From the NCBI RefSeq assembly GCF_003790525.1, contig NZ_CP033635.1: DNA of 64,000 bases. One strand, 5' to 3'. This document shows positions 44,306-53,550 of the stretch, one piece after another (position 1 is the first letter of the stretch; each line of letters begins with the position of its first letter). The notes under the pieces are model-generated. The model made no database searches. It saw only the letters and a list, made by a program, of their open reading frames with translations, and had not been told where the DNA came from. A program made the position numbers and the translations under genes. This stretch comes from Escherichia coli. GTDB taxonomy: Bacteria; Pseudomonadota; Gammaproteobacteria; Enterobacterales; Enterobacteriaceae.

Positions 44306-44536
44306 TTGGATCAAATATTTAAATCTCCTGTTCCTCAAGGGATTAAGTGGTCTGATATAGAGTCACTGGTTAAAGCATTAGGCGGAGAAATTAAGGAAGG
44401 AAGAGGTTCGCGTTGTAAGTTCATACTAAATATGAGCGTTGCGTGTTTCCATCGGCCTCATCCGTCGCCAGATACCGATAAAGGCGCTGTAGAAAGCGTG
44501 CGTGACTGGTTACTAAGTATAGGGGTAAAACCATGA
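44306..44536 (+). CDS. putative HicA/YcfA-like toxin
   Basis: 76-aa ORF (TTG start) with ...IKWSDIESLVKALGG...GS...HRPHP... resembling the HicA mRNA-interferase fold pattern; 4-nt ATGA overlap with the downstream antitoxin-like gene; start uncertain (SD plus ATG at 44262 is in another frame). Confidence 0.45.
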   Translation: MDQIFKSPVPQGIKWSDIESLVKALGGEIKEGRGSRCKFILNMSVACFHRPHPSPDTDKGAVESVRDWLLSIGVKP

Positions 44537-44894: not shown

Positions 44895-44934
44895 TATAGC
44901 GGCCCAACAATTTCTGTTGCGCCGCTATATTTTT
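44895..44934 (+). terminator. intrinsic terminator after the HicB-like gene
   Basis: stem tatagcggc / gccgctata with inner caaca/tgttg stem, followed by tttttg. Confidence 0.5.
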
Positions 44935-44941
44935 GTGGCTC

Positions 44942-45802
44942 TTAAGATGCCTTTCTAATCAATCGATGCCCCTCATTCATCATCAGGATTTTGCTATACA
45001 CATCTTCCTCGACGGCATTTTTTGCTGATGCCATCACTCGTGCCAGATTCGCCTCGTTGTGATTATTCACATACGCTTTGCCGACGGCAGTGATAAACGC
45101 TTTGCGCAGATCGCTGGCGATATTCACTTTAGCGACGCGATAATTAACGAAACTGCGTAATATCTCCGGGGCGATACCGGAGCCGCCGTGAATAACCAGC
45201 GGCACCGGGCTGACTTCGGCAATGCGCTTCAGCAGGGGGATATCGATCCGCGGTATATCGTCCAGGCCATGAACGTTACCAATAGAAACTGCCAGCATGT
45301 CGCAACCGGTGCGTTCGACAAAGGTCTTCACCTTTTCCGGTTCCGTTTTGCAATCGGCTTCGCTGACGTGATCGTCTTCTTTGCCGAGAATCGCCCCCAG
45401 CTCCGCTTCAACCGGTACGCCATAGGATTTACAGAAATCGACAGCTTCCTGGGTGAAAGCGATATTCTCTTCAAAAGAGAATGCGGCACCGTCAATCATG
45501 ACCGAGGTAAAGCCCGCGCGCACCGCCTGTTTAACATCCTCCTGAGTTTTCCCGTGATCAAGATGAAGACTGACCGGAACATCCATTTTATCAGCGTGAC
45601 GTTTCACGATTTCATAAATGTAATCGTATCCCGACAGTTGTGCATTGGTGGGCGCAATCTGAATGAAGTTGGGTAATCCTGAACGCTCAATGGCGTTTAA
45701 AATTGAAATCGTTGTCTCCAGATTGGTGGTATTAAATGCGCCCGCTAATACCCGTTTTTCCTGAATGCGGTCGAGCAGTATCCGTCCATTAACTAATGGC
45801 AT
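44942..45802 (-). CDS. class II ketose-bisphosphate aldolase (GatY/KbaY/FbaA family)
   Basis: 286-aa ORF MPLVNGRILLDRIQEKRVLAGAFN... with class II aldolase features (HLDHG, VIHGGSG); last gene of the PTS operon. Confidence 0.85.
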   Translation of the reverse strand: MPLVNGRILLDRIQEKRVLAGAFNTTNLETTISILNAIERSGLPNFIQIAPTNAQLSGYDYIYEIVKRHADKMDVPVSLHLDHGKTQEDVKQAVRAGFTSVMIDGAAFSFEENIAFTQEAVDFCKSYGVPVEAELGAILGKEDDHVSEADCKTEPEKVKTFVERTGCDMLAVSIGNVHGLDDIPRIDIPLLKRIAEVSPVPLVIHGGSGIAPEILRSFVNYRVAKVNIASDLRKAFITAVGKAYVNNHNEANLARVMASAKNAVEEDVYSKILMMNEGHRLIRKAS

Positions 45803-45833
45803 ATTGAAAACCTCATCTTTTAATATCAGTTAA

Positions 45834-46103
45834 TTATTCAGCTTCACCGAAGCGGTCGCGAAATAAGGTAGTGAGAGTTTGTATTGCCTCGTTTTCATCA
45901 TCACCTTCGCAGCGTATTTCCACCGTTTTTCCGCCTTTTATTCCGGCGCGCATAATATTCATCATGCTGGTGGCATTAATATCATTACCTTCATAATGCA
46001 GCGTCACTTTACAGCTATATTTTTTGGCGGCTTTCGCCAGACAGGCCGCCGGACGTGCATGCAGGCCAGTACTGTTTCTGACCTCCACGGTTTTACTCAA
46101 CAT
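45834..46103 (-). CDS. HPr-like phosphocarrier protein (PTS)
   Basis: 89-aa ORF with HPr active-site context NSTGLHARPAACL (His15 equivalent). Confidence 0.8.
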   Translation of the reverse strand: MLSKTVEVRNSTGLHARPAACLAKAAKKYSCKVTLHYEGNDINATSMMNIMRAGIKGGKTVEIRCEGDDENEAIQTLTTLFRDRFGEAE

Positions 46104-47601
46104 AGTGCTCCTCCCGATGATGTAATGGCATCACGCCTTCTTGCTGTAATTTCAACTGATACCAGCTTTTCCATTTGTGCTGATAACGCTGTAATTGATG
46201 GTATCTCGCCCGATTCGGTAACAAACGTTGGGCTATGGTGACTTGCGGCGGTGGAATATCCGGTGCGGCGGTTAATAATGCTCCGACAGAAACCGCCTCG
46301 TTAAATGCAATTGCTTCAACCGGACGCTGTAAAATATCCGCCTTTAATTGCAGCCAAAGGGGATTACGGGTTGCCGGACCTATCACTTTTAACGCGCTGG
46401 TGCCGGGCACATTAAAACAGGCGAAGCAGTTGGCAAATTCCATGGTTAATCCCAGTGAGACGCTGGCAATTAACATATCGATATTTAACGTATCGCCAAG
46501 CCCATAAAATAATCCTCGGGTATGGCGATTTTTATAGGGCGAACCCGAACCGCGAAGATGCGGAATAAAAACGGGAATGTCATCGAGCGACCAGTTCCCC
46601 GCCAGGTAATCCGCATGTCCGCGAGTAAGTGATGCGGCGATCTCCTCATCGGTTAGCCGGAACGTGTTGCGCAGCCACTCCAGAGCGAAACCGCCCACCG
46701 GCAGCGACGCAAACAGGGTGAACTGGTTTGCAAGCGAATAACAGCCGTTTGCCAGCTTGTCACGTTTGGCATGTTCATCCAGCGTCGGTTGTGTATCCAG
46801 TTGCAGAATGCCTTCTGTGGTGCCCGTCGAGTTAAGGATATCGCCCGGCGTCATCTGCAACGCCCGCGCACCCACCATATGGTCATGCCCGGCCAGCGTC
46901 ACGCTGACCGGTTGCAAGAACCCAAGCGTTTTGCAGAGCGACTCGCTGACCCATCCGGCGTGCTCGCCTGGCTGCACCAATGGCGCAAATGCTGAACAGG
47001 GAACGTGTAACAACGCCGCCGCTTTCGCTGACCATTCGCCTTTACGCACGTCCAGACACAGCGTACGGCTGGCTAAGGTGATATCCGTACGCTGTTCGCC
47101 AGTCAGCCGCCAGAGCAGTACTTCCGGCGCATGTAGCCAACGCAGGCCGCGGCGATTACGCAGTGGATAATGCTCCAGCAACCAACGCATTTTGAAGGCA
47201 GAGTAATTGCTGTGCAGCGGTAGCCCGCAGATGTCATAAAGCGCCGCACTGTCTGCCTCACTAAGCGTTGCCAGGTACTCTTCACCGCGGCGGTCATACC
47301 ATGCCAGCATTGGCGTCAGGATCTCGCCATGCTCGTCAAGAAACACCCCTGACTCGCCAAAACTGGCAATGCTTATCCGCCTGACCGGCAGCGGCGAAGC
47401 GGCGCTCAGTTGCGCTATTGCCTGGCGGACCTCCTGCCAGAGGGCGTCGATATCGAAATCGACATCGCCCTGTGGGGAGATCTGTTTTGCCGTCACGAAT
47501 TTATGCGCGCCCAACGTCGTTGCATCCAGGCAGGAAAAGCAGGTGACTTTGCAATTGGTGGTGCCAATATCGATAACGATAGCTGCGCTGTTATCAGGCA
47601 T
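46093..47601 (-). CDS. FGGY-family carbohydrate kinase
   Basis: 502-aa ORF; N-terminal AIVIDIGTTNCK and LAWYDRRG blocks typical of FGGY kinases; overlaps flanking genes by 8-11 nt. Confidence 0.8.
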   Translation of the reverse strand: MPDNSAAIVIDIGTTNCKVTCFSCLDATTLGAHKFVTAKQISPQGDVDFDIDALWQEVRQAIAQLSAASPLPVRRISIASFGESGVFLDEHGEILTPMLAWYDRRGEEYLATLSEADSAALYDICGLPLHSNYSAFKMRWLLEHYPLRNRRGLRWLHAPEVLLWRLTGEQRTDITLASRTLCLDVRKGEWSAKAAALLHVPCSAFAPLVQPGEHAGWVSESLCKTLGFLQPVSVTLAGHDHMVGARALQMTPGDILNSTGTTEGILQLDTQPTLDEHAKRDKLANGCYSLANQFTLFASLPVGGFALEWLRNTFRLTDEEIAASLTRGHADYLAGNWSLDDIPVFIPHLRGSGSPYKNRHTRGLFYGLGDTLNIDMLIASVSLGLTMEFANCFACFNVPGTSALKVIGPATRNPLWLQLKADILQRPVEAIAFNEAVSVGALLTAAPDIPPPQVTIAQRLLPNRARYHQLQRYQHKWKSWYQLKLQQEGVMPLHHREEHYVE

Positions 47602-48952
47602 AAACCGTGCTCCGCGTCATTCGGAAAATGCCATACAGTACCAGGGCGATAACCGGCACCAGACCAATGGCGATGAGATTGCCGTTGAAGATTTCCAGCA
47701 GCCAGAAGCGGAACGGGTTACCGCCATCAAGGAAACTGGAAACCTGGCCGCTGGAGCCTTCGGCAAATTTGAAGTTAACGTCTTTCGCCATTCCGGTAAT
47801 AAACGGCGCGATTTTAGTGGCAATCCACAGGTCGGCAATAATCACCGGGATCGCCGCCAGAACGGTGCGGAAAATATTGCCACGGCTGGCTAAAGCAATC
47901 ATCGACGCCATTACCGCCAGGTTGGCAAGGTCACCAAGCGGCAGGACTTCATTACCTGGGAGGACAAACGCGATAAAGACCGAGATTGGCGTCAGCAGCA
48001 GGGCGGTGGAGATAATCGCCGGGTTACCTACGGCAACGGCGATATCCAGGCCGATATAGAGATCGTCACGGTCAGGGTATTTGGCATTGAGATACTTTTT
48101 AATGGCTTCAGACAGCGGTAATAAACCTTCCATCAGGATGCGTACCATGCGTGGCAGGATGAACATCACACCGCCAATGCTGATGCCAAGCAGCAAGACT
48201 TTTTTGAAATCGTATCCGGCAATTACGCCGAGCAGAATGCCCAGAATAGTGCCAACCATCATCGGTTCGCCGAAGATGCCAAACTTTTTCTGTACGGTTT
48301 CCGGGTCGATATGAATACGATTGAGGCCAGGGATATGGTCGATGATTTTGTCGACCAGCAGACCGACCGGGAAGAACACCACCGAAGAGAGCGTCGGCAA
48401 TGAGATCCCTTCCAGGCCAAAGTATTTTTGTACCAGTGGCGCAGACCAGTCGGCGAGTTTTAGCACCACCACTGCGGCAATCGCGGCCGCCAGCAAACCA
48501 AAGAACAGGCTGCCGGTGCTGTAATAAACCAGCGTACCGGCAAGGGCAAAATGCCAGTAGTTCCACATATCTACATCAACGGTGCGGGTTTTATTCAACG
48601 CCAGCATTGCGACATTAATCAGAATGGTCAGGGGAATAACAAACGGGGCAATTGGCGACCCCCAGGTAATGGCAGAAAGCGGCGGCCAGCCTAAATCCAC
48701 CACCGGTAAATTAATTCCGGTGCGTTCAACCATCGCCTGGGCCGCTGGCCCGACATTGCTGGTAAGAATATCGAAAATGGCATAAATACCGACAAAACCA
48801 ATGCCGACCGTTAATGACGAGCGTAAGGCTTTAGCGGGTTTTACTTTAAAACAGAGAGCAAGAATAAATAACACCAACGGCAACATTACCGTGGGGCCAA
48901 ATCCCAATATATATTGCACAATATTATAGAGGGTATGCGCGATATCGTTCAT
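47594..48952 (-). CDS. PTS EIIC component, galactitol (Gat/Sgc) family
   Basis: 452 aa from MNDIAHTLYNIVQYILGFGPTVMLP; polytopic, collinear with GatC-type EIIC; the track ORF adds 10 upstream codons. Confidence 0.85.
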   Translation of the reverse strand: MNDIAHTLYNIVQYILGFGPTVMLPLVLFILALCFKVKPAKALRSSLTVGIGFVGIYAIFDILTSNVGPAAQAMVERTGINLPVVDLGWPPLSAITWGSPIAPFVIPLTILINVAMLALNKTRTVDVDMWNYWHFALAGTLVYYSTGSLFFGLLAAAIAAVVVLKLADWSAPLVQKYFGLEGISLPTLSSVVFFPVGLLVDKIIDHIPGLNRIHIDPETVQKKFGIFGEPMMVGTILGILLGVIAGYDFKKVLLLGISIGGVMFILPRMVRILMEGLLPLSEAIKKYLNAKYPDRDDLYIGLDIAVAVGNPAIISTALLLTPISVFIAFVLPGNEVLPLGDLANLAVMASMIALASRGNIFRTVLAAIPVIIADLWIATKIAPFITGMAKDVNFKFAEGSSGQVSSFLDGGNPFRFWLLEIFNGNLIAIGLVPVIALVLYGIFRMTRSTVYA

Positions 48953-49025
48953 AATAAACCTCTTTTTCAGGCGAGAGCGCACCTCGCGTTAGCGCCTGAT
49001 GGAGTGGGTTGGAATTAATTATTAA

Positions 49026-49307
49026 TTACTTTTTAAGAATCGAAACAATTTGCGCCAGCACTTTCTCTTCGCCAATACCGGTAATAATGGGTAAGCCGTT
49101 AACCACCGGCACGTCGAGTTCATAAGGCACTTTAGTCGTTGAAACAACCAGCGCTACGCCGTCGGTATTACCGGGTAAAGAGGCAACGTTGGTTTGGGAA
49201 TAATTGACGTTAAGGCCGTGCTCTTTGCAATACTCCATGACTTTTTCTGTTACCGCCGTGGATGTGGCAATACCTGTGGCGCAGACAAATAAAATGGTTT
49301 GACTCAT
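49026..49307 (-). CDS. PTS EIIB component (Gat/Sga-type)
   Basis: 93-aa ORF with phospho-cysteine context ILFVCATGIATS near the N-terminus. Confidence 0.85.
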   Translation of the reverse strand: MSQTILFVCATGIATSTAVTEKVMEYCKEHGLNVNYSQTNVASLPGNTDGVALVVSTTKVPYELDVPVVNGLPIITGIGEEKVLAQIVSILKK

Positions 49308-49777
49308 ATTTCACCTCGTTCATTCATTTTGTTTAAGATTACTGTGTGTATTTCTGTTGTTTCCATCGTAAGCAAGGCTTGCATAAAGGGCGTATCCTGA
49401 ATCATCTCCATAATCCAGCCCAGGGCATTTAATTGTTTGTTACTTTCGCTTAAGGCGAGCAAAAAAATCACCCTGACAGGCACGGGATCAGGGTCGCCGC
49501 CCATATCGGCAAACTCTACCGGCTCTGGCAAAATACCGACGGCAATTGCATTGTGCCGGACATGTTTATGGTCCGTGTGCGGAATGGCGACGCACGGTGG
49601 TTCGGTAGGCAGCCCCGTTGGATACGTCGCCTCACGTTTCAGTACGTGATTGGCAAAATCAGGGACCACCAGCTCAGCAGCAACCAACGGTTGCGCTAAC
49701 TGACGGATGATCTGTTCAACGCTTAACCCTGCCGGAAGTCGTTGAATATAATTTTCCTGAAACTGTATGCCTTGCAT
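49304..49777 (-). CDS. PTS EIIA component (fructose/mannitol-type EIIA)
   Basis: Start at ATG 49777 with SD AGGA (MQGIQFQENYI); phospho-histidine context VAIPHTDHKH; 4-nt overlap with the EIIB gene. Confidence 0.8.
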   Translation of the reverse strand: MQGIQFQENYIQRLPAGLSVEQIIRQLAQPLVAAELVVPDFANHVLKREATYPTGLPTEPPCVAIPHTDHKHVRHNAIAVGILPEPVEFADMGGDPDPVPVRVIFLLALSESNKQLNALGWIMEMIQDTPFMQALLTMETTEIHTVILNKMNERGEI

Positions 49778-49801
49778 TTTATTCCTCATAAAAAAGTGTA
49801 T

Positions 49802-50557
49802 TTAACTCACTTCCCGCCGTTGCAGCACGGTGCCCAGATAATATTTATTTCCTTTTAACCAGACGTTGCCAAACTCAACGGGTAACTCTCGGGAGAAAAA
49901 GACTAACTGCTCCAGATGCAAAACGGGTGCATCTTCACTGATATCTAAAAAATGACCGCGTTCATTACCAATTAATCGCGCGGCATAGCGACTTTCCGAG
50001 TAACGAATTTTTCTTTGCGACAAACTTTCTATTGTTGGAAATAAATTGTGTTGATTAAAATCGATTTCCACGATGCCGGGGCATAGCTCAATATTGATAC
50101 GGTTCTCTATCAGCATCGCTTTTTCATCACCAATTGAACGTAAACGCTCAAGGTAAAGAATATCCTGACCGGGCGTTATTCTTAATTTCTCTGCCACATA
50201 ACGATTAGCCGGTTCAATCCGTGACGTAATAACTTCAGTGGTAAAATGTATTTTCTGGCTTTCCAGCGATTCCGCGAATGACAATAATCCTTCACCTAAC
50301 GGATATGCCACGTTCTCTTTTTTGACAAAAGTTCCCTTCCCCTGGACCTGAATCAACACGCCTTCTTTTACCAGTTGGGCGACCGCTTTTTTAACGGTTC
50401 CCCGACTCACTTCCAGCATATCCATAATCTGGTATTCCGAAGGAATGCGATCGTCTTCCACCAGATCCCCGGTATAAATACTTTCTCTTATCCACTCCAC
50501 CACTTGTTGATAGAGCGGTATTTGTGACGACTTACTTAATGATTTCATGGCGCGCAC
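49802..50557 (-). CDS. GntR/HutC-family transcriptional regulator
   Basis: 251-aa ORF; N-terminal winged HTH (IPSEYQIMDMLEVSRGTVKKAVAQLVKEG) and C-terminal UTRA-like effector domain; 12 nt upstream of the EIIA gene. Confidence 0.85.
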   Translation of the reverse strand: MRAMKSLSKSSQIPLYQQVVEWIRESIYTGDLVEDDRIPSEYQIMDMLEVSRGTVKKAVAQLVKEGVLIQVQGKGTFVKKENVAYPLGEGLLSFAESLESQKIHFTTEVITSRIEPANRYVAEKLRITPGQDILYLERLRSIGDEKAMLIENRINIELCPGIVEIDFNQHNLFPTIESLSQRKIRYSESRYAARLIGNERGHFLDISEDAPVLHLEQLVFFSRELPVEFGNVWLKGNKYYLGTVLQRREVS

Positions 50558-50571
50558 CTGAACATTTACAG

Positions 50572-50585
50572 TTGTCTATGGACAA
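50572..50585. promoter_or_regulatory. candidate GntR-family operator (perfect inverted repeat TTGTC-N4-GACAA)
   Basis: ttgtctatggacaa 15 bp upstream of the regulator start, followed by a further GGACAAC half-site. Confidence 0.4.
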
Positions 50586-50746
50586 TCATGGACAACTTCA
50601 AGCGTATAGTAGGTGAACGGGAGAAAAAGAGGATCGAAGCGTCTCACATTTTGAGGGACCAAATCGTGATCAAAAAAATGTGACGTGAGTCGATATTTGG
50701 CAGGAATTTACTGCGCCGTCAGGAAATAACGGCGCGTGGGTAGGTG

Positions 50747-53550
<2,804 letters not shown>

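Follow-up and report, generated by a model that had tools for sequence, protein, structure and literature searches.

A conserved composite of three half-sites as the predicted operator of a HutC-subfamily regulator in a common Escherichia coli sugar island

Results

The regulator is the first gene of a PTS operon on an island next to nikR

We analysed a 64-kb stretch of Escherichia coli DNA, here called the window, which is 100% identical to E. coli SMS-3-5 by genome comparison. The site of interest lies in a 198-bp gap with nikR (50747-51148, minus strand) on one side and a minus-strand operon on the other. RefSeq and Pfam identify the first gene of the operon (49802-50548, minus strand) as that of a 248-residue GntR-family regulator of the HutC subfamily. 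The remaining genes (44942-49789, minus strand) encode, in order, PTS components IIA, IIB and a Gat-type IIC, an FGGY carbohydrate kinase, an HPr-like protein and a class II ketose-bisphosphate aldolase.

The operon is part of an island carried by 1637 of the 5426 complete E. coli genomes (approximately 30%), including O157:H7, UTI89 and SE15. In island-negative genomes the match to our query begins only at the nikR stop codon, at approximately 50747, and the entire intergenic region is therefore island DNA. The island spans approximately 44900-50746 and its boundary falls exactly at that stop codon. A 50-mer around the site is identical in all but one of the 1637 island-positive genomes, and the surrounding 1.1 kb varies among them, down to approximately 97% identity. 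Literature searches with pathway keywords, RefSeq protein accessions, the nikR/yhhJ context and PDB 3HFI returned no paper on the island, the regulator or the site, and no description of the substrate or regulation of the island was found.

Two further features flank this region. A GC-rich 7-bp inverted repeat (GCGCCGT-N9-ACGGCGC, 50713-50735) lies just downstream of the nikR stop codon; it has no T-run and was ruled out as a canonical terminator, and transcription from nikR may read through into the island operon. Beside the island, RefSeq annotates the hicA toxin gene as a frameshifted pseudogene and the adjoining hicB antitoxin gene as intact (approximately 44262-44536, positions 1563-1837 of our extracted locus L001).

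The regulator combines an N-terminal GntR wHTH (PF00392, residues 12-75, E = 4e-16, 58.8 bits against a cutoff of 27) with a C-terminal UTRA domain (PF07702, residues 98-236, E = 1.3e-26), and this architecture assigns it to the HutC subfamily of the GntR family. No NCBIfam equivalog reached its cutoff for this protein. Its residues 79-248 (window 49802-50314) are almost identical to PDB entry 3HFI, a 170-residue 'putative regulator' for which no mention in a paper was found in the literature. The best full-length relative of solved structure is NagR (YvoA) of Bacillus subtilis (E = 2.6e-21). When the two are aligned, Arg48, which contacts bases in NagR, and the wing residue Gly69 are conserved, and the equivalent of Arg38, likewise a base-contacting residue of NagR, is a tyrosine; the roles of these three residues are taken from PMC4333415. 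The tyrosine may give the regulator a docking geometry that differs from that of NagR. The HTH sequence of the regulator was not found in the accessible part of the supplements of Suvorova et al. (PMC4494728).

The RefSeq start codon of the regulator is the ATG at 50548, which is preceded at a distance of 6 nt by a Shine-Dalgarno sequence, AGGTG (50559 to 50555). A GTG at 50557 opens the longest reading frame, but it sits within this Shine-Dalgarno sequence and is absent in frame from orthologues of 66-72% identity.

The site is a 28-bp composite of three half-sites

An initial annotation of this DNA had proposed an autoregulatory operator for the regulator on the strength of a perfect inverted repeat, TTGTC-TATG-GACAA, followed by a second half-site, GGACAAC. 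Both elements are present as described, the repeat (TTGTCTATGGACAA) at 50572-50585 and GGACAAC beyond it at 50590-50596, each given on the plus strand. The distance of 15 bp between the repeat and the start of the regulator holds for the GTG at 50557; with the ATG at 50548 as the start, the gap is 23 nt.

A repeat search showed that these elements belong to a larger arrangement. Two copies of ATGGACAA lie at 50578-50585 and 50588-50595, an offset of 10 bp, and the arms of a longer inverted repeat, AGTTGTCTATG and CATGGACAACT, fall at 50570-50580 and 50587-50597, with 10 of their 11 positions complementary (91%). Read on the minus strand from 50597 to 50570, the predicted 28-bp operator consists of two direct 10-bp units and then one inverted unit (AGTTGTCCAT, GATTGTCCAT and AGACAACT). 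Units 2 and 3 form a 14-bp core palindrome at 50572-50585, which reads TTGTCCATAGACAA on the minus strand; 6 of its 7 pairs match, and its TTGT and ACAA boxes occupy positions -7 to -4 and +4 to +7. Unit 1, AGTTGTCCAT (50588-50597, minus strand), was defined by the repeat search together with the alignment and is an extra direct half-site, placed exactly 10 bp before the half of the palindrome that it matches. By this layout, the predicted functional unit is the composite of three half-sites and is more than the 14-mer alone.

Taken by itself, the repeat is not above chance. Perfect repeats with 5-nt arms and a 4-nt spacer occur 90 times in the 64-kb window, against 62 expected, and the window also contains 106 palindromes of 14 bp in which 6 or more of the 7 pairs match. 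The pattern TTGTCNNNNGACAA, with at most one mismatch, is expected 1.7 times in the window. Inverted repeats with 11-nt arms are more numerous in the real sequence (55) than in shuffles (6.8), and they are largely terminators and similar structures. The evidence for a real site is its conservation.

The composite is conserved and is duplicated at split operons

We compared 80 loci, one genome per species, chosen among the many orthologues of the regulator. The same PTS, kinase and aldolase genes accompany the regulator in loci L002-L054 (45-100% identity); within this set, the HPr gene was detected in the enterobacterial loci only. Across 15 enterobacterial genera with 83-100% protein identity, the composite lies at an equal distance from the start codon and its TTGT, CAT and GAC.AC columns are invariant, as is GTTGT.CAT of unit 1. 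In this alignment the 28-mer has a mean pairwise identity of 93% and the palindrome one of 94%, compared with 47-51% for the adjacent spacers and 49% for third-codon positions of the regulator gene. The palindrome is perfect in six genera, reading TTGTCTATAGACAA in five and TTGTCCATGGACAA in K. oxytoca. Genera in which the operon lies away from nikR also conserve the site, and an origin of the repeat as an att remnant of island integration was thus ruled out.

With the sole exception of L021, all orthologues of 66-100% identity have the motif at the corresponding position ahead of the regulator. The loci of 66-72% identity (L021-L035 and L052), a group that includes Raoultella, Erwinia, Serratia, Pantoea and Buttiauxella, have IIA, IIB, IIC and kinase genes in a separate operon approximately 5 kb upstream. 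Each of these separate operons has its own copy of the motif (for example CATGGTTGTACATAGACAACCATG), and a more diverged copy stays upstream of the regulator in all but L021, where the motif is retained only upstream of the PTS operon. The initial annotation would have counted a lack of conservation in orthologous loci as a refutation; the palindrome is clearly conserved in them, and it has been duplicated where the PTS operon is split off.

Directly downstream of the operator is a block of the 5'UTR (GTAAATGTTCAGGTGCGCGCC, 50549-50569) that is 89% conserved across genera, far beyond what a Shine-Dalgarno sequence needs. It contains an ATGT in 10-bp phase with the TTGT boxes, which could be a fourth operator unit.

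The motif is specific to regulator and PTS-operon promoters

Specificity was assessed with a pattern and with a weight matrix. The pattern TTGTNNATAGACAA was written from the orthologous sites and is consistent with those of other species. It has exactly one exact match in the 64-kb window, and across 81 loci all of its exact matches precede either the regulator or the PTS operon. The weight matrix (34 bits) was built from 28 distinct sites, all from outside Escherichia. It scores the E. coli site at 39.9 bits (50570-50597, minus strand); no other separate site in the window exceeds 4.1 bits, and 20 shuffles reach 11.9 bits at best. Every match of at least 12 bits in 1.1 Mb of loci is at a regulator or PTS-operon promoter. 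Loci outside the training set also score well, with 37.6 bits in Selenomonas/Centipeda, 28-31 bits in Enterococcus and 20-26 bits in Gilliamella.

Orthologues in these three groups carry phased TTGTnnAT arrays at the same place. Among orthologues of 54-59% identity, TTGTNNA[TC] units are enriched 15-fold in the 170 bp upstream of the regulator and are spaced at multiples of 10 bp. Gilliamella and Enterococcus have three to five direct units in phase. The Selenomonas/Centipeda loci (L046 and L048, 6926-6963) have a symmetric four-unit array, with AGATGTACAT and AGTTGTATAT on one side of its centre and AGACAAGTAA and GTACATCT on the other, which the weight matrix scores on both strands. This symmetry hints at binding by two dimers or a tetramer. 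In the Collinsella homologues (L054-L081, 42-43% identity) the regulator is not preceded by the motif and the gene context differs; these homologues were treated as non-orthologous and left out of the analysis.

The Enterococcus loci (L040, L042-L045, L047 and L049-L051) also show how the array relates to a promoter. Their promoters, approximately 60-120 nt before the regulator, are close to consensus (TTTACA-17-TACAAT), and the array of TTGT units begins 4 nt after the -10 element. In L040, L042 and L044, a cre-like (CcpA-type) sequence, TGATACCGATTACA or TGATACCGGTTACA, overlaps the promoter spacer; such sites would be the Firmicute counterpart of the candidate CRP sites described below.

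The predicted operator lies downstream of a predicted -10 element with candidate CRP sites

In E. coli, a predicted -10 hexamer, TACTAT (50611 to 50606, minus strand), lies 8 nt upstream of the operator and corresponds to nearly invariant TA..AT columns of the alignment. No -35 hexamer is recognizable upstream of it, and a scan of 50400-50900 for consensus sigma-70 promoters and terminators found nothing. Since the consensus scan gave nothing, the promoter model was drawn from the alignment and from analogy with the Firmicute orthologues. It places the transcription start at about 50599, and the operator would then cover approximately +3 to +30. The operator lies downstream of the predicted -10 element here and of the -10 element at the near-consensus Enterococcus promoters, which independently support its placement; this is a repressor position and not an activator one.

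Two candidate CRP sites lie upstream of the predicted -10 hexamer. Site 1, TGTGAGACGCTTCGAT (50633-50648, minus strand), is centred approximately 41.5 bp upstream of the predicted start. The centre of this 16-mer is 29 nt upstream of the -10 hexamer, and its TGTGA half, part of an AAAnTGTGA block, is invariant across genera; the E. coli sequence agrees with the consensus at only 7 of 10 positions, no better than chance. Site 2, TGTGACGTGAGTCGAT (50679-50694, plus strand), is 46 bp upstream of site 1. K. oxytoca and several further genera have a perfect TGTGA-N6-TCACA in its columns, which are degenerate in E. coli and C. amalonaticus, and in E. coli alone this site is not above chance either. 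The two sites are inversely oriented and together form a 20-nt imperfect inverted repeat. Matches to the CRP consensus with at most three mismatches are below expectation in the window (173 found, 219 expected); the two CRP sites are not claimable from the E. coli sequence alone.

Class II CRP promoters have a TGTGA-N6-TCACA site centred near -41.5, in place of the -35 element. Site 1 fits this geometry relative to the predicted -10 hexamer. The island promoter, which lacks a recognizable -35 hexamer, probably also needs cAMP-CRP. Six nucleotides downstream of the distal CRP-like site is a TGATC block (50668-50672; GATCA on the plus strand) that is almost invariant in the 15 genera and fits neither the CRP nor the Cra consensus.

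The site resembles HutC-type operators but departs from their spacing

Sites of the HutC subfamily follow the consensus NyGTMTAKACNy, with 4 nt between GT and AC, and the exceptions include FarR/MngR, which uses 10-bp direct repeats of TGTATTAWTT, as well as NagQ and SdhR (PMC4494728). The site described here has its GT and AC 6 nt apart (GT-CCATAG-AC), and no GT-N4-AC palindrome was found in any register of the 28-mer. Its outer TTGT and ACAA boxes do match those of published HutC operators, and the site shares with HutC-type operators a promoter location and conservation alongside the regulator gene across genomes. The initial annotation held that the repeat fits the short palindromes bound by GntR/HutC regulators. 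This is supported by the conserved site, the HutC-subfamily regulator and the half-sites; the spacing of GT and AC, at 6 nt and not 4, is where the fit fails. On sequence grounds, we would describe the site as like a HutC-type operator, belonging to a HutC-subfamily regulator yet off the canonical spacing, and combining palindromic with MngR-like direct-repeat features.

The NagR (YvoA)/DasR dre system offers a structural comparison, with the same wHTH and UTRA architecture as this regulator. In the crystal structure of NagR with its operator (PMC4333415), the site GTGGTCTAGACCAC is a 14-bp palindrome with 4-nt boxes at -7 to -4 and +4 to +7, 6 nt apart, as is the case here. Imperfection of the palindrome is shared by natural dre sites and the E. 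coli site. NagR acts as a repressor, with PTS and catabolic genes under its control and sugar phosphates as the releasing signal, which is similar to the reading proposed below. The two systems differ in the box itself, which is TTGT here and GTGG in NagR, and the conserved G is one base further out here (GT-N6-AC compared with GT-N4-AC). They also differ in the tyrosine at the Arg38 position and in the conserved third, in-phase direct half-site of the present element.

The HutC operators TTGTATAGACAA and AGTTGTACATACAACT, taken from the supplement of PMC4494728, have nearly identical half-sites to the present site, (A)GTTGT and ACAAC(T). Their core, however, is 12 bp with GT-N4-AC, and the present site has two extra central base pairs (TTGT-CCATAG-ACAA compared with TTGT-ACAT-ACAA). 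MngR/FarR of E. coli is a HutC-subfamily protein and a local regulator of a PTS sugar operon, as is proposed here. It has been reported to bind its 10-bp direct repeats (PMC4494728), and the present site likewise has two direct 10-bp TTGTCCAT(G/A)N units. Unlike the MngR repeats, these units are joined to an inverted unit to give a true palindrome, and the unit sequence differs. Palindromes of the GntR family are commonly accompanied by accessory half-sites, and Suvorova et al. (2015) described a palindrome with an adjacent extra box in four HutC orthologous groups (PMC4494728), an arrangement also seen here. In the present case, the extra box is as conserved as the palindrome, and its ACAA is 14-17 nt from the centre of the palindrome, somewhat beyond the 7-12 nt given by those authors.

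The layout, which grows to four symmetric units in Selenomonas and three to five direct units in Gilliamella and Enterococcus, may reflect a non-canonical, higher-order mode of binding, in which two dimers or a tetramer sit on one face of the DNA, and which would bridge the palindromic NagR/HutC type and the direct-repeat MngR type. We put this forward tentatively, as a possibility that we would not favor at present. If true, the pathway under such control would be a catabolic one, made up of PTS, FGGY kinase and aldolase and conserved across phyla.

The element is best read as the operator of a self-regulated repressor

We propose that the neighbouring GntR regulator of the HutC subfamily has its operator at 50570-50597 and would repress its own PTS operon, and we assign this reading a probability of roughly 0.85. 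A HutC-type regulator heads the operon, so the natural reading is that the whole operon is self-regulated. A dimer of the regulator would bind the 14-bp palindrome, and the in-phase third half-site 10 bp upstream would recruit a second dimer or otherwise stabilize binding. The occupied operator, from approximately +3 to +30, would block RNA polymerase at what would be the sole promoter of the operon, which runs from the regulator through the PTS, kinase and HPr genes to the aldolase. The result would be negative autoregulation combined with repression of the catabolic genes. Release of the repressor would follow when a phosphorylated sugar made by the pathway binds its UTRA domain, and cAMP-CRP would supply activation of the promoter.

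We weighed this reading against other explanations for the conserved site. It could be a real protein site at which the GntR regulator acts as an activator, or one that is bound by a different transcription factor. The assignment of site to protein is made by sequence comparison, and a promoter without a -35 hexamer needs some activator. However, the motif accompanies the regulator gene across phyla and genomic contexts and its half-sites are of the HutC type. Its place downstream of the -10 element, Enterococcus included, is that of a repressor, and the CRP-like sites are available to supply activation. We therefore regard an activator or a different factor as unlikely.

Alternatively, the conserved sequence could act in RNA rather than as a DNA operator, by folding at the 5' end of the mRNA into a leader stem-loop with an effect on stability or translation. 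The outer arms are predicted to form a leader hairpin with a minimum free energy of -12.6 kcal/mol, and the high conservation (89%) extends into the adjacent 5'UTR. That folding energy is ordinary, though (z = -1.15), as 29 of 200 shuffled sequences fold at least as well. Moreover, two adjacent stem mismatches (A.G and C.A) are present in most genera although the half-site sequences are fixed, the phased direct repeats of the distant orthologues have no hairpin potential, and there is no Rfam match. A role of this kind appears quite improbable. A Rho-independent terminator was ruled out, as neither strand has a T-run. Finally, a chance palindrome without function, which the 90 repeats of 5+4+5 nt in the window and the 1.7 expected occurrences of the originally proposed pattern might have suggested, is effectively refuted by the conservation, the duplication at co-regulated promoters and the weight-matrix specificity.

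The operator described here would very probably be an ordinary kind of switch, previously undescribed for this regulator. It leaves the concepts of gene regulation unchanged and adds one more documented exception to the GT-N4-AC rule of HutC operators. It also provides a defined DNA ligand for the regulator; an orphan crystal structure of the effector domain of this protein, 3HFI, is already available. The main use of the site is as a handle for finding the substrate of the sugar island, which is widespread in E. coli but uncharacterised: together with the plausible CRP-dependent promoter, the predicted operator could serve as a reporter for inducer screening.

Gene content gives an indication of substrate. 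The split operons of the 66-72% identity group contain two genes for Zn-dependent alcohol/polyol dehydrogenases (for example L024, 5777-6811 and 8936-10114), and the E. coli island is without them. This difference suggests that the substrate is a polyol in the 66-72% group, whereas in E. coli it would be a ketose or a sugar that is already oxidised.
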